64,000 bases of DNA from Flavobacterium sp. (GCF_027483985.1 NZ_JAIXTJ010000043.1:1400-65399); one strand, 5' to 3'; positions 18,192-61,695 are shown, counted from the stretch's first letter. Numbers and translations: made by a program. Notes: a model not told the origin generated them from the sequence alone.

Positions 18192-20150
18192 ATGAAAATA
18201 TTAAAAACAATTTTAATAGCTCTTCTTTTTTTGAACAATCTAGATTTGATAGCGCAAACTAAGGATTATATCAATGCAGAAAAAAAGAGAATAGCAAAGA
18301 CAGAACAAACAGAAAAAGATGTTGAACGATTTATCACAGATAATTTCAATAAGTATAAATTAGCTGTTGGAGCGTCAGATGAATTGATAAAAGAACTGAG
18401 AGAACACGAGAATTTTACTGATGCTCAAATAGAAAAAGCACTAATTGATGCTAAACGCAATGAGTTAAGAAAATTATTTTTTTCAAAAAATCGTGAGTTT
18501 GTTTCTGATTATAAAGCTTTAGAACTTCCAGCATCTATCGCTCAAGATTGCGTTAATGGTGACTTTGAAGATGGAACAGCAGGATATACCTTCTGGACTG
18601 ATTTACACCCACAACCAGGTTCAGGAACTTCGTTTTTTCAATCTTGCGCAACGCCAACGGTTTTGACCACTACCAATGTTTTAGCGCCAACAACAAATAA
18701 TTTTAATTCTAGAGCTACAATTATTAATAGTACTGCAGCAGGTTACCAACAATTTGATCCTGTTTTAGCTAGTTTTGGAGTTAATGTTCCAACTTTAAAT
18801 AATAATGGAGGAACTAAAGCTATCAAACTTAATAATACTGGTGGAATGGGTTCTTCCGATTTAACTACTGTTTCTAGATATTTTCCCGTAATAAACCAAT
18901 CTACAATTGATTTCAATTTTTCATTGGTGATGGATAATAAACCAGGTCACGCTCAAGATATTCAGCCTTATTTTAGAGCGAGAGTTTTAGATCAATTCGG
19001 TAATGTAGTTGATGAATTTTGTATCATAGCTAATCCTAATAATTGTTTATTTTCAACGATCAATGTAAATGCAGACAGAAGAGTTCTTTACACGGGTTGG
19101 ATCTGCGCAAGATTAAATGTAGGTGATATCTTAAATCAACCCGGAACTATTGAGTTTTCGGTTAGTGATTGTCAACCTTCAGCTCATTTTGGAACCGTTT
19201 ATATTGATAATATCTGCGGTTTTACTTGTGCTTCGCCGCAATTGGGTGCCATTAATACAAATCCAACAAATCTTAACTGCCCAAGCCCAACGAGTACAGA
19301 ACCAATTGAAGTTTGCGGAACTTATGCGCCTCCAGCTAACGCAGTTTTAAACTCAATTACACTCCAAATTATTCAAGGTGGTGTTGTGATTGCCACAATT
19401 AACACTCCATTACAATTGACCTCAAGTGGATTTTGTTTTAGTTTTTTGCCAAGTCTTTTCGGTGCAAATCCTTCCGGCAATTATGAGTTTCAAGTAAATG
19501 CTGACTTTAATGTAAATTGTACAGCAGGAACATTTTTATACGAGATTTCAGATAATTCCGCTAATGTTGGACCCGATGTAACTTTTATCGATTGTTGTAT
19601 TCCAACATTGATATTGACTTCACCAGCAGATGATAGTAATAATCTGGCACTTCCAGCTGTAAAAAAACGGGAACGATCTGACTGGATTAAAGCAGCCAAC
19701 ATTATTTCAGTAGGAGATAATGTTCAAGGCAATGGTGTTGTTTACCACGCTGAAAATTATGTAGAGTTAAATCCAGGTTTTGAAGCTGTGCTTGGTTCTC
19801 AATTTGCCGCTTATCCTGAAGGATGTTCGAGTACTTTTGTCTACAGAATTGGTCAGGAGCAAAATAATTCAGATGAACAACTTGAAGAAAATATTAATTT
19901 GATAAAACTTAGTAATGGTTTTTCTATTATTCCAAATCCATCAAGTAATTTTATTGAAGTTGTAATGAATGATGGTGATTTTAATAAGGTTAATATTGCA
20001 ACAATTGACGGCAGAATTGTATTTGATAAATTTACTGATGCCATAAATAGAACACAAATAGACGTAAGTAAATTTCCAACTGGAATTTATATTATCAATG
20101 TGACAACTGAAGATGGACAAATTCATTCCGAAAAGTTAATCAAAAATTAA
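18192..20150 (+). CDS. T9SS type A cargo, Cys-rich, with helical N-terminal segment
   Basis: Signal peptide (LIA-Q), CVNGDFEDG domain, YHAENYVELNPGF stack motif, IIPNPS...GIYII...KLIKN sorting domain; 6 bp after the fibre gene. Confidence 0.85.
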   Translation: MKILKTILIALLFLNNLDLIAQTKDYINAEKKRIAKTEQTEKDVERFITDNFNKYKLAVGASDELIKELREHENFTDAQIEKALIDAKRNELRKLFFSKNREFVSDYKALELPASIAQDCVNGDFEDGTAGYTFWTDLHPQPGSGTSFFQSCATPTVLTTTNVLAPTTNNFNSRATIINSTAAGYQQFDPVLASFGVNVPTLNNNGGTKAIKLNNTGGMGSSDLTTVSRYFPVINQSTIDFNFSLVMDNKPGHAQDIQPYFRARVLDQFGNVVDEFCIIANPNNCLFSTINVNADRRVLYTGWICARLNVGDILNQPGTIEFSVSDCQPSAHFGTVYIDNICGFTCASPQLGAINTNPTNLNCPSPTSTEPIEVCGTYAPPANAVLNSITLQIIQGGVVIATINTPLQLTSSGFCFSFLPSLFGANPSGNYEFQVNADFNVNCTAGTFLYEISDNSANVGPDVTFIDCCIPTLILTSPADDSNNLALPAVKKRERSDWIKAANIISVGDNVQGNGVVYHAENYVELNPGFEAVLGSQFAAYPEGCSSTFVYRIGQEQNNSDEQLEENINLIKLSNGFSIIPNPSSNFIEVVMNDGDFNKVNIATIDGRIVFDKFTDAINRTQIDVSKFPTGIYIINVTTEDGQIHSEKLIKN

Positions 20151-20170
20151 AATAGTAAATACTTATAAAC

Positions 20171-20200
20171 AAAAGCTTCGTTAATCAACGGAGCTTTTTT
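20171..20200 (+). terminator. Terminator overlapping the next -7 promoter element
   Basis: AAAAGCTTCGTT / AACGGAGCTTTT, then TATATTTG at 20200-20207. Confidence 0.8.
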
Positions 20201-20231
20201 ATATTTGTACAAATGCCAAAAGCAAAAGTAT

Positions 20232-21146
20232 ATGTTACAATTAAATGTAAAAAACGAAACTTCTAGATTGAGAGCCGTTGTATTAGGTTCGGCCTTAAAT
20301 AATGGTCCAACGCCAACAGCAGACGAAGCTTATGACCCAAAATCTTTAGAACATATTCTTGCAGGAACTTATCCTGTTGAAGAAGATATGGTTAACGAAA
20401 TGGAAGCTTTCAATACTGTTTTTCAAAAGTATGATGTAAAGGTTTTTCGTCCAGAAATGATTGAAAGTTATAATCAAATTTTCACTAGAGATATTGGTTT
20501 TGTGATCGATGATGTTTTTGTTAAAGCCAATATTCTACCTGATAGAAATCGCGAATTAGAAGCTATTAATTATGTTATCGAACAAATAAATCCTGCAAAA
20601 GTGGTTCGTCCGCCAGATGAGGTTCACATTGAAGGTGGCGACGTAATGCTTTGGAACGATTATATTTTTATTGGCACTTACAAAGGTTCTGACTATAAAG
20701 ATTATATCACAGCAAGAACCAATATGCAAGGTGTGCAGTACATCAAAAATTTATTTCCAAACAAGATTGTAAAAGAATTTGATTTAGTAAAATCTAAATT
20801 AGAAGCTCGCGATAACGCACTTCATCTTGATTGCTGCTTTCAACCAGTAGGAAAAAATAAAGGAATCATTTACAAAAGCGGTTTCCGAGAAGAAGCAGAT
20901 TACGTCTTTTTAGTAAAATTATTCGGTAAAGAAAACTTATTTCACATTACGCGTGACGAAATGTATAATATGAATTCTAACGTTTTTTCTATTGCTGACG
21001 ATGTAGTAGTTTCAGAAAAAAACTTTACAAGATTAAACAACTGGTTAAGAGAACAAGGTTTTACAGTAGAAGAAATTCCATACGCCGAAATTGCCAAACA
21101 AGAAGGATTGTTGAGATGCTCAACTTTACCTTTGATAAGAGATTAG
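20232..21146 (+). CDS. Amidinotransferase / arginine deiminase-superfamily protein
   Basis: QIFTRDIGFVI, IEGGDV, LHLDC, GLLRCSTLP; start at MLQLNV after the promoter element. Confidence 0.9.
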   Translation: MLQLNVKNETSRLRAVVLGSALNNGPTPTADEAYDPKSLEHILAGTYPVEEDMVNEMEAFNTVFQKYDVKVFRPEMIESYNQIFTRDIGFVIDDVFVKANILPDRNRELEAINYVIEQINPAKVVRPPDEVHIEGGDVMLWNDYIFIGTYKGSDYKDYITARTNMQGVQYIKNLFPNKIVKEFDLVKSKLEARDNALHLDCCFQPVGKNKGIIYKSGFREEADYVFLVKLFGKENLFHITRDEMYNMNSNVFSIADDVVVSEKNFTRLNNWLREQGFTVEEIPYAEIAKQEGLLRCSTLPLIRD

Positions 21147-21150
21147 AGTA

Positions 21151-21627
21151 GTTGTAAGTTTTATGTTATGAGTTATAAGTTCTGTTTATAATATTGACCT
21201 ATTTAAAGATGAGTAGTTATAGAGATTTAGATATTTATAAAATTGGATTGGAGCTTTTTTACATTGTTCATCCAGCTTCTTTAAAACTTCCTAAATATGA
21301 AATGTACGAATTAGGAAGTCAAATAAGACGTTCATCTGATTCTGTGGTAACTAATATAGTGGAAGGTTACGGAAGAAAAGCTTACAAAGCTGAATTTATT
21401 CGATTTTTGACTTTCTCTTGGTCAAGCTGTTTAGAGACTGTAAATCATTTAGAAAAAATTAATCATCTGTATAGAGGGATAATATCTAATAATGAAGATT
21501 TAATTATTAAGTATAACGAATTAAGTTCCAAAATTTTCAATTTTATAAAATATGTTGAGCAAAATTGGAAGACATAAAACTATCGACAAACAAATTAACC
21601 TACAACCCAAAACCTATAACATACAAC
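21151..21627. mobile_element. Putative intervening element: four-helix-bundle gene between inverted heptamer arms
   Basis: Left arm GTTGTAA GTTTTAT GTTATGA GTTATAA GTTCTGT (21151-21185); right arm AATTAAC CTACAAC CCAAAAC CTATAAC ATACAAC (21593-21627). Mobility is inferred, not shown. Confidence 0.5.
21209..21577 (+). CDS. Four helix bundle protein (23S rRNA intervening-sequence protein family)
   Basis: SYRDLDIYK, LPKYEMYELGSQIRRSSDSVVTNIVEGYGRK, EFIRFL...SCLET. Confidence 0.93.
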   Translation: MSSYRDLDIYKIGLELFYIVHPASLKLPKYEMYELGSQIRRSSDSVVTNIVEGYGRKAYKAEFIRFLTFSWSSCLETVNHLEKINHLYRGIISNNEDLIIKYNELSSKIFNFIKYVEQNWKT

Positions 21628-21637
21628 AAAATTAAAA

Positions 21638-22576
21638 ATGAATCAAACTACAAATTCAATTCTGATGATTCGTCCGGTAGCGTTTAGAATGAACGAGCAA
21701 ACGGCGGTAAACAATTATTATCAAAAAGTCCTTGACGGATTAACTCCAGCAAATGTTAATGAAAAAGCGCAACAAGAGTTTGATACTTTCGTAAACAAAT
21801 TAAGAATGGTAGGTATCGAAGTGACAGTGGTTGACGATACTTTAGATCCAGATACTCCAGACAGTATTTTTCCTAACAATTGGATTTCGTTTCACGAAAA
21901 TGGTGACGTGGTTTTATATCCAATGTTTGCTGAAAATCGTCGTGCCGAAAGACGTGAAGATATTTTAGATGTTCTTGAGGCCAAAGGCTACGAAATCAAT
22001 GACGGAATTATGGATTACACTGCTGCAGAAGAAGATGGTTATTACCTTGAAGGTACGGGAAGTATTGTGCTTGACAGAGAAAACGGAAAAGCTTACTGCG
22101 CATTATCTCCAAGAGCTGACGAAGAATTATTCATAGAATTTTGCGAAGATTTCGATTTAAATCCAATCATTTTTGAAGCGTATCAAACTGTTAACGGCGA
22201 ACGAAAACTAATCTATCACACCAACGTTATGATGTGCATTGCCGATACTTTTGCCGTGATTTGTGCCGATTGTATCGATGATAAAAAAGAACGCAAAATG
22301 GTTCTAGACAGTCTTCGTTCTGACGAAAAAGAAATTATTTTGATTACAGAAGATCAAATGAACAACTTTGCAGGAAACATGTTAGAATTGCAAGGTGCAG
22401 ATGAAAGAAGGTATTTAATTATGAGTTCATCAGCTTATAATGCCTTAACCAAAAAACAAATCGCACAACTTGAAGAACATATCACAATTCTTCATTCCAG
22501 CCTAGATACTATTGAAGCTTGCGGTGGCGGAAGCGCTAGATGCATGATGGCTGAAGTTTTTCTTCCAAGAAAGTAG
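21638..22576 (+). CDS. ctlX: Citrulline utilization hydrolase CtlX-like
   Basis: MIRPVAF, TPDSIFPNNWISFH, LEGTGSIVLDR, YHTNVMM, GGGSARCMMAEVF. Confidence 0.88.
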   Translation: MNQTTNSILMIRPVAFRMNEQTAVNNYYQKVLDGLTPANVNEKAQQEFDTFVNKLRMVGIEVTVVDDTLDPDTPDSIFPNNWISFHENGDVVLYPMFAENRRAERREDILDVLEAKGYEINDGIMDYTAAEEDGYYLEGTGSIVLDRENGKAYCALSPRADEELFIEFCEDFDLNPIIFEAYQTVNGERKLIYHTNVMMCIADTFAVICADCIDDKKERKMVLDSLRSDEKEIILITEDQMNNFAGNMLELQGADERRYLIMSSSAYNALTKKQIAQLEEHITILHSSLDTIEACGGGSARCMMAEVFLPRK

Positions 22577-22580
22577 TTTT

Positions 22581-22604
22581 GTCACATTAAGCGCAGTCAA
22601 AGTG
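22581..22604. repeat. Degenerate REP-like palindromic unit
   Basis: GTCACATTAAGCGCAGTCAAAGT matches 16/23 positions of the 23841 copy; 4 nt after the ctlX stop. Confidence 0.55.
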
Positions 22605-22613
22605 CTTTTTAAC

Positions 22614-22658
22614 TTCCAAATTCCAATATAATTACAATTGGAATTTGGAATTTTTTTT
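22614..22658 (+). terminator. Terminator built from heptamers
   Basis: TTCCAAA TTCCAAT / ATTGGAA TTTGGAA stem followed by T8. Confidence 0.75.
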
Positions 22659-22671
22659 ATTGGAATTTCAC

Positions 22672-23307
22672 TTATATTCCTCTTATAATACTCAAGACTG
22701 CACTAATAATATACTGAATACCAATAGCAACAGTCAAGAATCCTACAATTCTCGAAATTGCTACAATTCCAGAAGCTCCTAAATATTTAGCAAGATAATG
22801 AGCACTTCGCAAAACTAAAAATATTAGAAACGAAACTACCAATATTGAAAGTGTCGACGATAAAATTTCAGGTGTAGTTTTATGATCTTGGTTAAAAGCA
22901 ATCAATAAAGAAATCGATCCTGGGCCAGCCAACATTGGCATAGCAAGCGGCGTTAAAGCAATTGAGGTTCTACTTTGCAAATCTTCTTCCACTTCTTTGC
23001 TGATACCTTTTCTTTTCTTCGGATTTGCATTTAGTAAACCAAAACCCGAACTCGCAATCAAAATTCCACCAGCTATTCGCAAGGCCGAGATTGTAATTCC
23101 AAAAAAGCTTAATACATATTCACCAACAAAAAACGAAATTATTAAAATGATACAAACGTTAATAGCGGCCATTAAAGAAACACGTGAACGTTCGACTTTG
23201 GTATAATCTTGTGTTAAACCCACAAAAAAGGGAATTGCGCCAATAGGATTTAGTACCGAAAATAAAGCACCAAGCAAAACAAAAAAAGTATTCAAGAAGA
23301 TGTCCAT
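22672..23307 (-). CDS. marC: MarC-family integral membrane protein
   Basis: LFSVLNPIGAIP, ALRIAGGIL, PLAMPMLAGPGSI; TATCTTTG -7 element on the minus strand at 23332-23339. Confidence 0.92.
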   Translation of the reverse strand: MDIFLNTFFVLLGALFSVLNPIGAIPFFVGLTQDYTKVERSRVSLMAAINVCIILIISFFVGEYVLSFFGITISALRIAGGILIASSGFGLLNANPKKRKGISKEVEEDLQSRTSIALTPLAMPMLAGPGSISLLIAFNQDHKTTPEILSSTLSILVVSFLIFLVLRSAHYLAKYLGASGIVAISRIVGFLTVAIGIQYIISAVLSIIRGI

Positions 23308-23473
23308 TCTTAAAGAGGTTTAAATTTTCGACAAAGATAAATAAAGAATTATGCCTAAAGTTAAAATAAAGACAATTATCCGTAATTTTGTCAAATGAAA
23401 TCGCCACGAACCTAACTTTTGTTTAAAACAAATTTCAAATACGGTGATGCTATAAAAAACAACTTCTACATTT

Positions 23474-23839
23474 ATGAAAAATAAGAAAACACTAGTTCTT
23501 GGTGCTTCCACCAAACCTGAAAGATATGCTTTTAAAGCCATAACAATGCTGGTTGATAAAGGTCATTCCGTTTTAGCAATTGGTCAAAATCAAGGAGAAG
23601 TTGCCGGAGTTTCCATCCGAACCAAAAATATTCCACTTAACAATATCGATACGGTTACATTGTATTTGAACCCGATACGTCAACGCGATTATTATAATTA
23701 CATTATCGAAACCAAACCTAAACGAGTAGTTTTCAATCCAGGAACCGAAAATCCAGAGTTTTATCAGTTACTTAAAGCCAATTCTATCAAAGTGGAAGAA
23801 GCTTGCACCTTGGTTTTATTGACAACTAATCAATATTAA
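23474..23839 (+). CDS. CoA-binding protein (YccU-like)
   Basis: KTLVLGASTKPERYA, VVFNPGTEN, ACTLVLL. Confidence 0.88.
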   Translation: MKNKKTLVLGASTKPERYAFKAITMLVDKGHSVLAIGQNQGEVAGVSIRTKNIPLNNIDTVTLYLNPIRQRDYYNYIIETKPKRVVFNPGTENPEFYQLLKANSIKVEEACTLVLLTTNQY

Positions 23840-23840
23840 T

Positions 23841-23863
23841 GTCAGACTGAGCTTTGTCGAAGT
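23841..23863 (-). repeat. REP-like unit
   Basis: Reverse complement ACTTCGACAAAGCTCAGTCTGAC matches the 23-bp units at 61759-61845. Confidence 0.7.
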
Positions 23864-23994
23864 TAGGAGCGAGTGGCTCGGGACTTATCAGTGAAGGTAA
23901 TTCCTGCTTTTCGTTCTACTTCGTGCCACTTCAATCAGGGCTAGTGAGGTTTCCATTTTAATTTTTGTTCAAAAATCTACAGCGAGTTCTAGTT

Positions 23995-25512
23995 CTAAAA
24001 CTTCGTTTGGCTAGTGGCAGGTTTGCTAATTGCCAATAATCCAATAAAAGTAATTAATCCGTTAACGATAATTAATTCGTTATCAATAACGTAATCGCCC
24101 AAAAGTGCCGCAGAATTTTGAGAAATCAAAAAACATATTGCAGGAGAAATCAAACAAATTAGTGGAACCAATTTATCGTGAACGGTTTTGGATTTAACAA
24201 ACAAACCAAAAGCATACAATCCTAATAATGGACCGTAAGTGTAAGTAGCAATTTTAAAAACCATTTTCACAACCGAATCGTCATTGATGGCATTGAAAAT
24301 GATAATCACCACAAACATCAAAACAGAAAATCCTACGTGAACCCAATGGCGCGTTTGAACCATTTTTTTATCATCTGATAACTGCTGATTGCTGTCCGTT
24401 GATTGCTTTTTGTCCATTCCAAGAAAATCTACACAAAACGATGTAGTTAATGCGGTTAACGCACTATCAGTAGTTGCAAATGTTGCCGCTGTCAATCCTA
24501 ACAAAAACACTATTGTCGGTATAATACTCAAATGATTTATAGCAATTTCAGGAAAAAGTAAATCAGTTCTAGCCACATCATTCACCATCGGAACTTGTAT
24601 TCCGTTTTTCTGTGCATAGATGTACAATAACGCACCAACACTCAAGAAAAAGATATTTATTAAAACAAAAACACCTGTGAAAGTAAACATATTTTTTTGT
24701 GCTTCACCAATGTTTTTGCAACTCAAATTTTTCTGCATTAAATCTTGATCTAATCCTACTGTGGCAATAGTTACAAAAATTCCACCCAAAATTTGTTTCC
24801 AAAAATAAGTGCCTTTCAAATAATCTTCAAAGAAAAATACTTTAGAATAATTGCTGTTTTTTACCTCTTCAAAAGCTTCGATTATTCCAAAATCTAAACT
24901 TCTACAAACAAAAAATATCGTTAAGAATACCGACGAAATTAAGAAAAAAGTTTGTAGTGTGTCAGTGATAATTATGGTTTTTAATCCACCGCGATAGGTG
25001 TAGGCAAAAATCAATCCGAGCGAGATTAAAACGGTAATTGCAAACGGAATTTCTAATGCGTCGAAAACATATTTTTGTAAAACAAAAACCACTAAATACA
25101 ACCTAAAAGCCGACCCAATTGTTCTTCCAATTAAGAAAATTGTTGCAGCAGTTTTGTAACTCACCACACCAAGTCGCTGCTCGATATAACCATAGATTGA
25201 AGTCAAATTCATTCGATAATACAACGGAAGTAAAACTTTGGCAACAATTATAAATCCGATGGCGCAACCTATTACAAATTGAAAATATTTAAACTGCAGA
25301 TCAGGATTTCCAACCTCGCCAGGAACGGAAATGAAAGTGATTCCAGAAATTGCTGTACCAATCATTCCAAAGGCTACTAAATACCATTTTGAATTTTTGT
25401 TGGCCTTAAAAAAAGTATCATTATCAGTACTTTTTCTACTAACAACATTTGATATAAAAATTAATAATCCGAAGTAAACTACAATTAAAATTAGAATGGC
25501 TATTGGCGACAT
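23995..25512 (-). CDS. Sodium:solute symporter family transporter
   Basis: FGMIGTAISGITFISVPG, GLDQDLMQKNLSC, many TM helices; start placed at MSPIAIL. Confidence 0.9.
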   Translation of the reverse strand: MSPIAILILIVVYFGLLIFISNVVSRKSTDNDTFFKANKNSKWYLVAFGMIGTAISGITFISVPGEVGNPDLQFKYFQFVIGCAIGFIIVAKVLLPLYYRMNLTSIYGYIEQRLGVVSYKTAATIFLIGRTIGSAFRLYLVVFVLQKYVFDALEIPFAITVLISLGLIFAYTYRGGLKTIIITDTLQTFFLISSVFLTIFFVCRSLDFGIIEAFEEVKNSNYSKVFFFEDYLKGTYFWKQILGGIFVTIATVGLDQDLMQKNLSCKNIGEAQKNMFTFTGVFVLINIFFLSVGALLYIYAQKNGIQVPMVNDVARTDLLFPEIAINHLSIIPTIVFLLGLTAATFATTDSALTALTTSFCVDFLGMDKKQSTDSNQQLSDDKKMVQTRHWVHVGFSVLMFVVIIIFNAINDDSVVKMVFKIATYTYGPLLGLYAFGLFVKSKTVHDKLVPLICLISPAICFLISQNSAALLGDYVIDNELIIVNGLITFIGLLAISKPATSQTKF

Positions 25513-37304: not shown

Positions 37305-37837
37305 TGGGATTCTTTGGTTGTTGGAATGACAAAATGGGGTGGAGTTTCTGGAGGGATTCTTCGTTTTTTGGAATGATAAATTGGGTTGGATGTGTTTTGG
37401 TTGAGTTTCTTTGTGGAGTTTCTTTTTGGAGTTTCTGGTGGGATTCTTCCTGCGTCAGAATGACAAATTGGGGCGGAGTTTCTTTGTGGAGTTTCTAGTG
37501 GGATTCTTTCCTTGTTGGAATGACAAATTGGGGTGGAGTTTCTTTGTGGAGTTTCTGGTGGGATTCTTTCTTCGTCAGAATGACAAATTGGGGTGGAGTT
37601 TCTTTGGTTAGTTTCTAGTGGGATTCTTTCCTTGTTGGAATGACAAATTGGGGTGGAGTTTCGTTGGTTAGTTTCTGGTGGGATTCTTCCTTCGGCAGAA
37701 TGACAAATTGGGGTGGAGTTTCTTTGGTTGGTTTCTGGTGGGATTCTTCCTTCGTCAGAATGACAAATTGGGGTGGAGTTTCTTTGTGGAGTTTCTGGTG
37801 GGATTCTTACTTTGTTGGAATGACAGATTGGGGTGGA
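37305..37837. repeat. Tandem array of 60-bp REP-like units (about 9 copies, 7 in exact 60-bp register)
   Basis: GGATTCTT-N9-GAATGACAAATTGGGGTGGAGTTTCT... starts at 37441, 37501, 37561, 37621, 37681, 37741 and 37801, with degenerate units near 37306 and 37353. Confidence 0.93.
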
Positions 37838-37855
37838 TTTGTTTTTAAGTTGTTG

Positions 37856-41900: not shown

Positions 41901-44803
41901 AAACTACATCATTAGTTAGCGTATTTGGTGGTTCCTCTTATGATAGTTTGGTTTGGTCGCCTTCTACAGGTGTTTCAGGATCGGTTGCAGCAGGATTTAC
42001 TTTTAATCCAACGGTTACTACTACCTATGTCTTGTTGGCTAATCAAACCACAGGTGCACAGTGTGGTAATTTAGCTACTTTGACCGTGGTAGTTAATCAA
42101 GCGCCGCCGATTGTTTCCATACTTCCTGTTAATCCTTCCATTTGTCAAGGAACGGTGCAGCCTTTATTAGGAAGTACGAGCATCGCTAGTCCAGCAGTAT
42201 TGATTAATGAAAATTTTAATGCTCCGACCAATAATTGGGTTGTAGCAAATAGTTCTACTGGCGGCAATACTTTGGCGTCGCAATGGACTTTGAGGCCAGC
42301 AGGCTATAATTACATTAATGGTTTTGGTTGGAATGTTACTTTCAATAGTAATGATAATTCCCAATTTTATTTAGCCAATTCTGATTCGCAAAGTGGTACC
42401 GCGGGTACGATTACAAGAACTACTTTAACTTCGCCTTCCTTTAATTTGGAAGGATTTACGTCAGCGAATTTGAGTTTTTATCATTATATTAATGCTATTG
42501 CGTTTGATAAATTTGAAGTACAAATCACTTCTGACAATGGCGTTACTTGGACTAATTTACAAAACTATACTGTTTTGCAAGGCGGACCAGGTGCTTTTTC
42601 TAATGTGGTTATAGACTTAGCGGCTTATTTAGGCTTGCCTGATTTAAAGATTCGTTTTAATTATTTTTCAAATTGGGGTTACTGTTGGGCTTTGGATAAT
42701 GTAAGAGTAGCAGGAACTTTGACCGCTGCTTTAACCTGGTCTCCGATTACTGATTTATATTCTGATCCAGCAGGAACAATACCTTATGTTGCCAATACGC
42801 CTGCCACTGTTGTTTATTCAAAACCAACGAATACCATAACTTATACGGCCACTTTAACTGGGTCTAATGGTTGTTTGCGAGTTGTTACTAACACGTTGAC
42901 TGTTTCACCACAAACTGTTGCTGGAGTGCTTTCCAGTGACCAATCCATTTGTACTGGAACACCTGCAAATAATCTTGTTTTGACGGGAAGTGTGGGAAGT
43001 ATTTTGCGATGGGAATATGCTAATGATGCTGCTTTTACCTCTGGAGTAACTACCATTGCTAATACCACAACCATCTTAACTCCAGCGCAAATGGGTGTCT
43101 TTGCAACCATTCGTTATTTTAGAGCAGTTGTTAGAAGTGGTGTGTGTAGTCAACTTTATTCTAATGTGGTTTTTGTAGCTTTTTATTCCACTACTTGGAA
43201 TGGTACCTCTTGGAGTAATGGTGTGCCTAATGCTACTACAAGAGCTATATTTGCTGGTAATTATACATCGACTGGTGATTTATATGCTTGTTCTGTTCGT
43301 GTAAGCGCAGGAACGGTTACTTTTAATGCTAATCATTCGTTGGTAGTCACCAATGATGTTACGGTTGTAGCAGGCGCTTTGATTTTTAATACTACTTCAA
43401 GTTTGGTTCAATTGAATAATGCTGCGGTTAATGCCGGGAATATTACTTACCGACGATCTGCTATGCCTATGACTAAATTTGATTATACTTATTGGTCTTC
43501 TCCTGTAGCGAATCAAGTGTTGTCTACCTTTTCGCCTTTGACTCCATCAGATAAATTTTTTGAATTTAGTCCAGCCCTTGGAAATTGGTCCAATGTAGCT
43601 CCGAGTTCCGGTATGGCTTTGGGTAAAGGATATATTATTCGCGCTCCTAATAATTATAGTTTGGTTACGCCTTCGGTATATAATGCAAGTTTTGTTGGTG
43701 TACCTAATAATGGTATTATTACAACTCCGGTTTCGGTTGCTGCAAGTACTTTTAATTTGTTAGGAAATCCTTATCCAAGTGCTGTGAGTGCTGATTTATT
43801 TTTATCCGATCCTTTAAATGTTGGTGTAGTGGATGCTTCTATTTATTTGTGGACGCACAACACTCCAATTTTGGCGGGTCAGTATACTAATAATGATTAT
43901 GCGATTTATAATTATTTAGGAGGAACAGGAACCAGTTCGGCACCTAATACGGGCATTAATAACACTGTTCCAAATGGCAAAATTGCTTCAGGGCAAGGAT
44001 TTTTTGTTAAAGGATTAGCAAGCGGCGTGGCAACCTTTAGAAATGCTATGCGTTTGGTTGGAGATAACAATCAGTTTTTTAGAATGCAAGCGCCGACTGT
44101 AGGAACAGGTTCGGTATTAACTTCGATTGAAAAACATAGGATTTGGCTTGATATTGTTAATGATCAAGGCAATTACAAGCAGACTTTAGTTGGTTATGCT
44201 ACGAATGCGACTATGGGAATTGATCGTGGTTATGATAGTGATTATCTTAATGTTGGGAATCCTGTTTCTTTATATTCGTTAGCTCCAACGTTGTCTACTT
44301 TATCTATACAAGGACGTTCTTTGCCTTTTTCTGATTTGGATGAGGTGCCTTTAGGATTTTATACCGCTTCTTCGGGAGAATTTACTATTAATCTGTATGA
44401 TTTTGATGGGTTGTTTTTGAATCAATCTATTTATTTGAAGGATAAAGTTACCGATATTATTCACGATTTGAAACAGTCTTCTTATGTGTTTAGATCAAAT
44501 GCAGGAACGTTTAACGAACGTTTTGTTTTAGTGTATCGCAATGGTGCGTTGTCTGTTTCTTCTGCTTCTTTTAATAGCGATGCTATAGTTTTATATAAAC
44601 CTGCGCAAGAGCTTTTTATTGATTCGGGTGCTGCTCTTATGCAGTCGATTAGAGTGTTTGATGTTCGAGGAAGGCTATTGCTTGAAAAGAAGGACATTAA
44701 CGCGACTAGAACTTCTTTTGATGCTGGTACTACCAACCAGGTTTTATTGATTGAGATTACTTCTAGTGACGGATTGAAGGTTACTAAGAAGTACGTTAAT
44801 TAG
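38963..44803 (+). CDS. Giant T9SS surface protein (1946 aa): FN3, adhesin-like beta-sandwich and Ig-like domains, YTYWSSPV module, ChiA-like (type C) sorting domain
   Basis: Signal peptide (AIA-Q), GLTSGTTYYYWV-type FN3 ends, C-terminus VFDVRGRLLLEK...KVTKKYVN. Confidence 0.88.
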   Translation: MLPRKKNTFTSFIVALLLVLFGTTSAIAQVNAYTLTQSVVGFTPLPVTATTAIAAPWDNSGAIQVPIGFTFNYDSVNFTQCYISPNGFITFGTVVPSAVNYTPLSDNTTYNGAIGGGVISALGTDLVSSVSNPAAIVYAVEGVAPNRTFIVQWTRANRKAAVGDLDFQIRLSETTNEILLVYGNCDTTLSTTTVNVQVGLRGQNSDFNQGNVFNRFQGSNQLWSVTGATVNGTLNNHTLLTNPSAFPPFGFQYLYVPGPPCVTPPSQATGLIIGGTGITSNSFLGNTFTAANPAPSKYLIVRSTVNTPPTSATFINRNIYNVGFNYGAAPVYRVVANSNLTTFNQTGLTSGTTYYYWVISFNEKCAGGPFYNLVDPLFGSATTCFQSAVANAAVAVGGNEFTANWNPVAGATGYALDISTSSAFTTFLPGYNNLILGSGVTSQVVSGLLPFTTYYYRVRALGPGCIINSNTITVATTCGFYTIPYVQNFDLTPVGSVPTCFSVLNANADTNQWRTQSLNFASASRSIQIDKNATVDMNDWFFLPGLSLTGGVSYRLKFSYNTGNTASNSENLSVLYGTSQSVAGMTTTLTTLTSFDNSFYETTQVDFTPLNSGVFYIGFRGNSIANQTYIVIDDISVTPSPSCIEPTEVLTTAITSTTTSLSWIPSTIPPALGYEYFLSTTATPPTALTVPTGSVGAGVTTLNLTGLNPSTSYYIWIRGNCSSSDKSVWSVEETFNTECSTPIITSTIAATRCGYGTVNLVANPSSGSSIRWFDSMTSGAQVGSGTTFTTAPLSATTTYYAEARAFGAIVKLGPSNPTTQLGVKGLQNYQGFVNFTVHTVTSLQSVDIFPIASGQAGKLVIRNSANITLASFNFTTSVAGGSTLQQIIMNYNLLPGVYNLYFDTLPASGLRMNTTNSSYPYVSSVASIEGNSIDGNFNLGAYNWRFTTECLSGRVPVTATVSAPPALSLSASTLTICENETTSLVSVFGGSSYDSLVWSPSTGVSGSVAAGFTFNPTVTTTYVLLANQTTGAQCGNLATLTVVVNQAPPIVSILPVNPSICQGTVQPLLGSTSIASPAVLINENFNAPTNNWVVANSSTGGNTLASQWTLRPAGYNYINGFGWNVTFNSNDNSQFYLANSDSQSGTAGTITRTTLTSPSFNLEGFTSANLSFYHYINAIAFDKFEVQITSDNGVTWTNLQNYTVLQGGPGAFSNVVIDLAAYLGLPDLKIRFNYFSNWGYCWALDNVRVAGTLTAALTWSPITDLYSDPAGTIPYVANTPATVVYSKPTNTITYTATLTGSNGCLRVVTNTLTVSPQTVAGVLSSDQSICTGTPANNLVLTGSVGSILRWEYANDAAFTSGVTTIANTTTILTPAQMGVFATIRYFRAVVRSGVCSQLYSNVVFVAFYSTTWNGTSWSNGVPNATTRAIFAGNYTSTGDLYACSVRVSAGTVTFNANHSLVVTNDVTVVAGALIFNTTSSLVQLNNAAVNAGNITYRRSAMPMTKFDYTYWSSPVANQVLSTFSPLTPSDKFFEFSPALGNWSNVAPSSGMALGKGYIIRAPNNYSLVTPSVYNASFVGVPNNGIITTPVSVAASTFNLLGNPYPSAVSADLFLSDPLNVGVVDASIYLWTHNTPILAGQYTNNDYAIYNYLGGTGTSSAPNTGINNTVPNGKIASGQGFFVKGLASGVATFRNAMRLVGDNNQFFRMQAPTVGTGSVLTSIEKHRIWLDIVNDQGNYKQTLVGYATNATMGIDRGYDSDYLNVGNPVSLYSLAPTLSTLSIQGRSLPFSDLDEVPLGFYTASSGEFTINLYDFDGLFLNQSIYLKDKVTDIIHDLKQSSYVFRSNAGTFNERFVLVYRNGALSVSSASFNSDAIVLYKPAQELFIDSGAALMQSIRVFDVRGRLLLEKKDINATRTSFDAGTTNQVLLIEITSSDGLKVTKKYVN

Positions 44804-44876
44804 TGATTAGTCCTTAGTGATTAGTCCTTAGTGATTAGTCCTTAGTGATTGGTTCTTAGTGATTAGTAATTAGTTT
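44800..44876 (+). repeat. Heptamer array (TTAGTGA TTAGTCC)n, 11 units
   Basis: In-phase TTAGTNN units; the first unit contains the TAG stop of the 1946-aa gene. Confidence 0.92.
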
Positions 44877-44894: not shown

Positions 44895-45030
44895 GGAGTT
44901 TCTTTGGTTAGTTTCTTGTGGGATGTTTCCTTTGTCAACATGACAAATTGGGGTGGAGTTTCTTTGTGGAGTTTCTTTGTTGAGTTTTGCTGTTGAGTTT
45001 CGTTGGTTGGTTTCTGGTGGGATGTTTTCT
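44895..45030. repeat. Solo copy of the 60-bp array unit
   Basis: GTGGGATGTTTCCTTTGTCAACATGACAAATTGGGGTGGAGTTTCTTTGTGGAGTTTCT. Confidence 0.85.
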
Positions 45031-61365: not shown

Positions 61366-61376
61366 TTTATAAGTCT

Positions 61377-61411
61377 TTAGTGATTAGTCCTTAGTGATTA
61401 GTCCTTAATTA
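61377..61411 (+). repeat. (TTAGTGA TTAGTCC)2 heptamer array after the 3258-aa gene
   Basis: 28 bp identical to part of the 44800 array. Confidence 0.88.
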
Positions 61412-61478: not shown

Positions 61479-61695
61479 GTATTAAGATTGGAGTATTAAG
61501 TAGTAAGACTTTGGATTGTTGATTGAGGATTGAGGATTGAGGATTGAGGATTGTTGATTGAGGATTAAGGATTAAGGATTGAGGATTGAGGATTAAGGAT
61601 TGAGGATTAAGGATTGAGGATTAAGGATTGAGGATTGAGGATTGAGGATTGTTGATTGAGGATTGAGGATTGAGGATTGAGGATTGTTAATTGTT
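61479..61695 (+). repeat. Heptamer array GATT(GAG/AAG/GTT): 25 core units at 61514-61688 plus in-phase degenerate flanks
   Basis: Units counted by hand in an uninterrupted 7-bp register. Confidence 0.95.

Follow-up and report, generated by a model that had tools for sequence, protein, structure and literature searches.

Introduction

PF05635 is, to our knowledge, a very large protein family with solved structures and no known function outside the Avd protein of diversity-generating retroelements (DGRs). Two further puzzles have been around for decades: why heptamer repeats are in excess between bacterial genes, and where the intervening sequences (IVSs) of ribosomal RNA (rRNA) come from. Here we describe a 477-bp unit in a 64,000-nucleotide (nt) stretch of Flavobacterium DNA, hereafter the window, in which a PF05635/TIGR02436 gene, preceded by five GTTnnnn and followed by five nnnnAAC heptamers, lies at positions 21151-21627 between a gene for an amidinotransferase-fold protein and ctlX. 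The window comes from genome G000 (3.36 Mb, 32% G+C); other G-numbers denote compared genomes, L-numbers related loci and C-numbers contigs of G000. From sequence comparison we consider it somewhat probable that this unit, which takes up the entire space between the two genes, is a small mobile cassette, whose gene lies between inverted repeat arrays and encodes a protein that recognises the repeat of those very arrays.

The closest relatives of the cassette appear to be the rRNA IVSs that bear an open reading frame (ORF), such as those of Coxiella burnetii and Leptospira with their S23p ORF. They share with it the PF05635 family, a size of about 430-480 nt and an ORF placed between inverted terminal repeats, and their mobility has been suspected and is unproven. 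In the Coxiella IVS, tandem heptamers (GACAGAT) lie beside the ORF (PMC4990558). The IVSs, however, sit in helix 25 or 45 of 23S rRNA whereas the cassette sits in a protein-coding operon; their ends form a 28-bp near-perfect stem whereas each arm of the cassette has five degenerate, weakly pairing units; and the Coxiella protein is reported to be decaying and probably untranslated, whereas the cassette protein is under purifying selection. The closest analogy seems to be with the repetitive extragenic palindromes (REPs; REPIN systems) and the REP-associated tyrosine transposases (RAYTs). There too, one small gene stands between inverted repeats of a type that is also frequent in the genome without a gene, and the repeat type co-varies with the gene clade, a property that we found in the cassette, as co-variation only. 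A RAYT, by contrast, belongs to the Y1 (HUH) transposases, whose catalysis is known, whereas PF05635 is a four-helix bundle, and REPs are single palindromes whereas the cassette arms are tandem arrays of fixed period. DGR Avd has a homologous four-helix-bundle fold, is a pentamer like the solved relatives of the cassette protein and acts as a nucleic-acid and reverse-transcriptase partner (PMC10053308), but next to the cassette gene stand heptamer arrays, and neither a reverse transcriptase nor a template or variable repeat.

Heptamer arrays are known from other bacteria. The intergenic GGGAATC repeats of Xanthomonas and GGGGAYT repeats of Nostoc were ascribed to G-quadruplexes by Rehm et al. 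2015 (PMC4692102). Together with the heptamers of the cyanobacterial short tandemly repeated repetitive (STRR) sequences they resemble our arrays in their period of 7, their position between co-directional genes, their frequent inverted pairs, a G-rich strand that follows stop codons and a C-rich strand that precedes start codons, a preference for about 4 units and a unit number that changes fast. The 'clear preference for four units' of the Xanthomonas repeat was read as a G-quadruplex requirement (PMC4692102). The arms studied here agree with this in having a modal length of 4-5 units, both genome-wide in G000 and in the window, C38 and C56 subfamilies described below, although their units (GTTGTAA, AGTGATT, GATTTTA) are unable to form G-quadruplexes, so that the published explanation does not apply to them. 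We therefore rejected a G-quadruplex explanation of the heptamers, since the units (GTTGTAA etc.) have no GGG run. The study itself appears not to link its repeats to a protein family, because its text has no match to 'S23' (PMC4692102).

Results and discussion

The cassette is gained, lost and exchanged as a discrete unit of DNA

Our comparison shows that Flavobacterium lineages acquire, lose and swap the cassette as one discrete piece of DNA, whose edges coincide with the stop and start codons of the host genes. Both flanking genes lie on one contig in 27 members of the genus, and their junction is filled in 5 (G000, G014, G030, G009 and G027) and empty in 22. The comparison of this junction among relatives, which the preliminary description had proposed, thus turned up empty sites. 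One of them, with a spacer of 40 nt, is in the closest relative, the sister genome G023 (93% protein identity for both flanking genes taken together); in G014, the next closest genome, the site is filled. On a 55-taxon host-gene tree, in which filled taxa are enriched by the way in which they were found, the filled or empty state changes at least 10 times. In 8 of the 22 empty sites there are GTT or AAC chains without a gene (a chain being at least four uninterrupted triplets at 7-nt spacing), often as a hairpin, and some of the other empty sites contain ordinary hairpins.

Exchange is seen most directly in comparison with F. croceum, whose DNA is 82-85% identical to that of the window in the arms and 86-95% in the gene, compared with 70-81% in both flanking genes. 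The switch in identity falls exactly at the host boundaries, starting after the upstream stop codon and ending at the ctlX ATG, and the raw synonymous difference is 0.35 [0.22-0.49] for the cassette gene as against 0.76 and 0.74 for the flanks. G014 shares host genes of about 91-92% protein identity with the window, and its cassette protein is 73% identical and is accompanied by a different arm variant. By the approximately unbiased (AU) test, the host genes reject that the four carriers of the cassette type found in the window form a clade (p-AU 2e-30), and the cassette protein rejects the host clade (p-AU 2e-6). A second insertion site was found between ugd and a second sugar dehydrogenase gene, where the cassettes L050, L053 and L072 cluster with the amidinotransferase-ctlX copy of F. 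anseongense (support 96, protein identity 86-91%) and share its arm type. L050 (2501-2869) is a close relative of the window's cassette and stands in a polysaccharide locus, its second neighbour being a nucleotide-sugar dehydrogenase gene. In a published table of Riemerella capsule genes, too, a PF05635-type gene has an epimerase gene and ugd as its neighbours (PMC13688083).

Among orthologues at the amidinotransferase-ctlX site the protein is under purifying selection, with a ratio of nonsynonymous to synonymous substitution rates (dN/dS) of 0.04-0.17, and it evolves 2-4 times faster than its neighbours. One orthologue, that of G009 (L017), has one in-frame stop (LLLPK*EFYELG). The upstream arm of L017 is composite, with GTTGTGT/GTTATAT/GTTGTAA outside and GTTATCG/GTTATCA inside, and exactly one in-frame stop also occurs in the PF05635 matches of G217, G229, G281, G117 and G171.

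The unit had been described beforehand as either mobile as DNA or processed at the RNA level, and as unrelated in function to the arginine/citrulline genes that it splits. The empty sites, the conflict between trees, the similarity to F. croceum and the second operon all speak for the DNA half of the first statement, mobility here being meant on an evolutionary scale; the second is borne out too, the 477-bp unit being a separate insert with no relation to those genes. That the gene might serve arginine/citrulline metabolism was also considered and rejected, because it is missing from most relatives that have the same operon and has close kin in a polysaccharide locus.

An Avd-like retro-mobile variant, in which the protein would bind the cassette RNA arms together with a reverse transcriptase and the cDNA would home into array hairpins, would account for an exchange confined exactly to the transcribed spacer and for an array polarity that follows transcription, and Avd, a structural homologue, is essential for retrohoming (PMC10053308). 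Nevertheless, no reverse transcriptase adjoins any copy whose neighbourhood was examined, and we regard this variant as highly improbable.

Protein subfamilies keep their own repeat units

All 11 PF05635 genes of G000 have short-period arrays on both sides, and the unit varies among the copies. The survey of all four-helix-bundle genes of the genome that had been suggested beforehand gave period-7 flanks for 10 of the 11 and period 8 for the remaining one (C25); a comparable both-side array score is reached by only 2.9% of all G000 genes. Relatives were collected for four of the G000 paralogues, namely the window copy and those on C38 (47978-48343), C56 (64044-64406, minus strand) and C25 (80095-80463). 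The subfamily of the window copy comprises 75 loci, which occupy about 24 different sites and come from several Bacteroidota families. In 61 of these loci both sides fit period 7 best, and period-7 arrays flank both sides in 67/76 and 69/77 relatives of the C38 and C56 copies.

Importantly, the unit depends on the subfamily. In that of the window, GTT chains were found in 52/75 upstream arms and AAC, the reverse complement of GTT, in 44/75 downstream arms, with a GT-rich upstream and an AC-rich downstream side in 57/75 loci and the reverse in 3. AGT/ACT chains occur in 59 and 57 of the 76 C38 loci and GAT/ATC chains in 16 and 42 of the 77 C56 loci, while the off-diagonal counts of the triplet-by-subfamily table are 0-2, and inside ORFs the count is 0. 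When counted by site cluster, the diagonal stands at 17/24 for the window subfamily, 4/4 for C38 and 8/14 for C56, and the unit consensuses are GTTGTnr, AGTrAwT and GATTTTA, respectively. In the C25 subfamily, period-8 arms of the GTTTAAAA type were seen in 33 and 36 of 46 loci (58-97% identity), and its more distant relatives have period 7. Thus, four protein subfamilies each keep their own unit, and even their own period, across many insertion sites, which is a new finding. Since all four coexist in G000, host mutation bias cannot explain the differences between their units.

These numbers also bear on the possibility that heptamer arrays are a general slippage-prone filler of operon spacers in G000, comparable to the heptamer repeats of Xanthomonas and Nostoc, between which the PF05635 gene was captured or retained (for example at recombination hot spots) without any specific relation. 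Such a coincidence would fit with the fact that only about 20 of the 210 strong period-7 arrays of G000 flank PF05635 genes, that ordinary genes too sit between arrays, that many empty sites in relatives already have array hairpins, and that a few genomes have arrays where no PF05635 gene was found; the same positional bias was, in addition, published for the GGGAATC repeats without mention of a PF05635 gene (PMC4692102). It does not predict, however, that arrays of period 7 stand on both sides of 10/11 such genes in G000 and of 61/75, 67/76 and 69/77 relatives as against 2.9% of genes, that unit type and period track the protein subfamily within one genome, or that the arms travel together with the gene. 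We therefore consider coincidence distinctly unlikely.

A survey of the order was given no weight in this argument. It found both PF05635 genes and GTTN4x5 arrays in 115 genomes, neither in 62, the gene only in 20 and the arrays only in 13 (odds ratio 27; genus-level Spearman 0.76), but genome size and kinship confound the comparison: small genomes lack both, related genomes are not independent, and nearly all genomes of at least 2.5 Mb have both.

Pairing of the arms

The pattern GTTN4x5 has exactly two matches in the 64-kb window, which are the two arms on opposite strands, where 0.01 were expected, and none of 100 shuffles reached two matches. The coordinates confirm five GTTnnnn units 4 nt after the amidinotransferase stop codon and five nnnnAAC units ending 10 nt before the ctlX ATG, as had been reported; the estimate that the outer four unit pairs match at about 5-6 of 7 positions likewise agrees with in-register counts of 6, 5, 5, 5 and 4 of 7. 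A repeat search returned the arms as 24 nt at 75%. In the window subfamily the median gap is 35 nt from arm to ATG and 15 nt from stop codon to arm.

Arm pairing would be the basis of an mRNA-level intervening element. In the operon transcript the GU-rich arm would anneal to the AC-rich one and RNase III would cleave the stem, as it does in 23S rRNA IVSs; the four-helix-bundle mRNA would so be released or separated and the amidinotransferase:ctlX expression ratio set, the repeats existing for the sake of the stem. Several observations favour such an element. The PF05635 family is found inside rRNA IVSs that are excised by RNase III, and the Coxiella stem region has tandem heptamers (PMC4990558). 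The minimum-free-energy fold of the 497-nt region pairs the arms, and among the orthologues at the amidinotransferase-ctlX site two pair strongly (G014, z -6.2; G030, z -5.5) and three weakly; a z of -3 or below was obtained for 23 of the 75 relatives. The arrays are polar with respect to transcription, as in the 57 versus 3 orientations of the window subfamily, and the trio of genes has a terminator-like hairpin at either end and none in the spacers of the cassette.

In the window copy itself, on the other hand, pairing is weak. Its arm duplex reaches -17.0 kcal/mol, where shuffled sequences give -12.3 +/- 3.0 (z -1.6, equalled by 7% of shuffles), its flank duplex ranks 1236th among 2813 crude gene calls of G000, in which 7 of the 9 other PF05635 genes scored come within the top 156, and the 497-nt fold has a z of -0.71, with the arm helix missing from the centroid. 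Pairing is also weak in G027, despite intact arrays. How many units one arm has shows no correlation with the number in the other (r 0.04-0.2), and at variable positions arms match within a locus barely better than between loci (0.63 vs 0.51; 0.75 vs 0.67; 0.83 vs 0.75); complementarity in the relatives comes mostly from both arms matching one subfamily-specific unit and not from locus-specific pairing. The 'periodic bulged stem that loops out the ORF' of the preliminary description thus found no support in the form stated, as this copy pairs no better than an average gene of G000, the unit numbers of its family's arms do not correlate and the complementarity is largely explained by the shared unit. 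A requirement for a stem would, furthermore, leave unexplained the subfamily-specific units, the 8-nt period and the turnover at the DNA level. Consequently, we judge an mRNA-level intervening element to be unlikely.

Arrays without a PF05635 gene

G000 contains 210 strong arrays of period 7, compared with 2-38 for periods 5, 6 and 8-11. With 11 PF05635 genes in the genome, most arrays have no such gene alongside. The invariant triplets commonest among the 210 are AGT (42), GTT (40) and GAT (31), and about 30 of the 38 arrays of period 8 are of the GTTTAAAA type, so that the roughly 250 gene-less arrays of G000 fall mostly into the same unit classes as the PF05635 subfamilies. Between co-directional genes the arrays are polar: of the 60 with an AC-rich sense strand, 44 end 25 nt or less before the next start codon, compared with 4 of 32 GT-rich ones. 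The heptamers of Xanthomonas and Nostoc were published with this positional pattern (PMC4692102).

Within the window, arrays without a four-helix-bundle gene occur at 44799-44874 (TTAGTGA/TTAGTCC x11), 61372-61407 (the same again, x5) and 61513-61686 (GGATTGA x25), the first two after the stop codons of giant genes. Elsewhere in G000 there are islands, on C22 (518-5328), C46 (3540-9463), C52 (5927-6931) and C48 (116932-117521), in which many consecutive heptamer arrays of varied unit types follow each other in a single orientation, 15-400 nt apart, with no ORF above about 60 amino acids (aa) inside. The C22 island holds one block twice, about 3.9 kb apart.

A model for the protein and its repeats

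In the reading that we prefer, a mobile cassette whose protein recognises its own repeat, the arms would be putative arrays of binding sites for the cassette's own protein, whose solved relatives are pentamers, and protein and repeat would therefore belong together as RAYT and REP do. Arrays without a gene might then be solo or derived arms or targets, on which the protein could act in trans. Pairing between the arms would be a by-product of their inverted arrangement, although such pairing may yet be of importance in RNA or single-stranded DNA. We know of no catalytic motif or site in the PF05635 protein, so that moving the cassette would require the recruitment of a host enzyme, be it a nuclease, a recombinase or a reverse transcriptase.

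Several points weigh against this reading. No transposase, target-site duplication or conserved terminal sequence was seen at the cassette, and no movement was seen among near-identical strains; the arm sequences differ among the G000 copies, and no direct repeat lies outside the arms. The groups compared by the AU tests were named only after the trees had been seen, and the test of the single pair of window and F. croceum on host genes was borderline (p 0.058), although it is superseded by the four-taxon test and the synonymous-site comparison. The link between protein and repeat is a correlation across loci that share ancestry within a subfamily, and for the C38 subfamily it is backed by only 4 distinct sites. 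Among the 11 paralogues a Mantel test of protein against arm-unit similarity gave r 0.10, with 1068 of 5000 permutations as high (p ~0.2). Heptamer arrays are present in 13 of 210 genomes where no PF05635 gene was found, such as G283 with 23 pattern matches. Finally, the arrays are polar with transcription, GT-rich after stop codons and AC-rich before start codons. This polarity is not predicted by purely double-stranded-DNA binding and indicates some function or constraint that acts on the RNA, for which an AC-rich unstructured leader before the next start codon is a candidate; such a leader would suit translation initiation in Bacteroidota.

A wider generalisation, which we offer only tentatively, is that PF05635 proteins may be sequence-specific binders of periodic repeats, each subfamily of its own 7- or 8-nt unit, and may define a widespread, undescribed class of mobile cassettes, with the gene-less arrays (STRR, GGGAATC-type and the ~250 found here) and the ORF-bearing rRNA IVSs as products or targets. 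If each subfamily recognises its own unit, the function of PF05635, the excess of heptamers and the origin of the rRNA IVSs would share one explanation, and protein and repeat would be a compact recognition pair with programmable unit and period. The subfamily-specific units are a first clue to the targets of these proteins. For annotation, the idea, if true, would account for the splitting of otherwise closely knit operons by small PF05635 genes and for the rapid evolution of the adjoining spacers.

Organisation of the locus

The coordinates of the cassette and its surroundings are collected in Table 1.

Table 1. Features of the amidinotransferase-ctlX locus, in positions of the window
Feature	Position	Strand	Remarks
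Terminator-like hairpin before operon	20171..20198	+	12-pair stem then T run; outside cassette
Upstream host gene, amidinotransferase/arginine-deiminase (DDAH) fold	20205..21146	+	PF02274, PF19420
Outer spacer, 4 nt, AGTA	21147..21150	+	between host stop codon and first unit
Upstream arm, 5 heptamers GTTGTAA GTTTTAT GTTATGA GTTATAA GTTCTGT	21151..21185	+	GTT core, 7-nt spacing
Inner spacer, upstream arm to start codon	21186..21208	+	conserved with F. croceum
Four-helix-bundle gene, 122 aa, PF05635/TIGR02436 ('23S rRNA intervening sequence protein' family)	21209..21577	+	
Inner spacer, stop codon to downstream arm	21578..21592	+	
Downstream arm, 5 heptamers AATTAAC CTACAAC CCAAAAC CTATAAC ATACAAC	21593..21627	+	GTTnnnn on minus strand
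Outer spacer, 10 nt, A-rich, before ctlX ATG	21628..21637	+	
ctlX, citrulline utilization hydrolase, downstream host gene	21638..22576	+	NF046062, 451 bits (cut-off 334); PF19420
Terminator-like hairpin after ctlX	22589..22607	+	outside cassette

The cassette protein matches PF05635 with 73.2 bits (cut-off 33.8) and TIGR02436 with 78.4 bits (cut-off 24). PF05635, which is not a transposase family, is its sole Pfam match, and its nearest solved relative is 2GSC (XCC0516), a pentamer. Its ORF runs from ATG 21209 to TAA 21575-21577, the orthologues beginning at this ATG and not at TTG 21194, and no large ORF of another kind was found within the 477-bp unit. Tandem Repeats Finder gave period 7 and 4.6 copies for the upstream arm. 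The upstream host gene, which ends with TAG at 21144-21146, resembles arginine deiminases/dihydrolases in NCBIfam with scores below the cut-offs, and its orthologues are 72-92% identical in relatives, whether the cassette is present or not. In the region 19000-24000 there was no rRNA match, the cassette being placed between protein-coding genes and not in 23S rRNA, and a permissive Rfam scan of that region gave no match at the arms.

The stop codon of the preceding gene, at 20150, lies upstream of the first hairpin. No terminator-like site was found in the two spacers of the cassette, and the sole such site between the bracketing hairpins is a 6-pair hairpin at 21110-21124, within the upstream gene. 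Because terminator-like hairpins bracket the trio and none lies in the cassette spacers, the amidinotransferase-fold gene, the PF05635 gene and ctlX are probably one transcription unit.

Other observations

Flavobacterium-type amidinotransferase-PF05635-ctlX loci were also met in L057, L071 (titled a Bifidobacterium breve metagenome-assembled genome, MAG) and L065 (a Sphingobacterium MAG), with part of the locus lost at the end of the contig in L057 and in L071, and Flavobacterium-type four-helix-bundle genes were met in other contexts in L067 and L137 (a Limnohabitans MAG). Their flanking genes, where present, are 82-96% identical to those of the window, and these five contigs are probably mis-binned in public assemblies.

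A Flavo-1 RNA motif (RF01705) was matched in the window at 23896-23946 (minus strand), with 42.2 bits against a gathering score of 42, between a 121-aa ORF (23474-23839) and a transporter gene ending at 23995. Further along, at 37413-37844, lies a 60-nt tandem repeat of 7.2 copies (87% match) with GTGGAGTTTC sub-repeats, to which a 13-nt unit, GTGGAGTTTCGTT, at 44953-45005, 7 kb away, is related.
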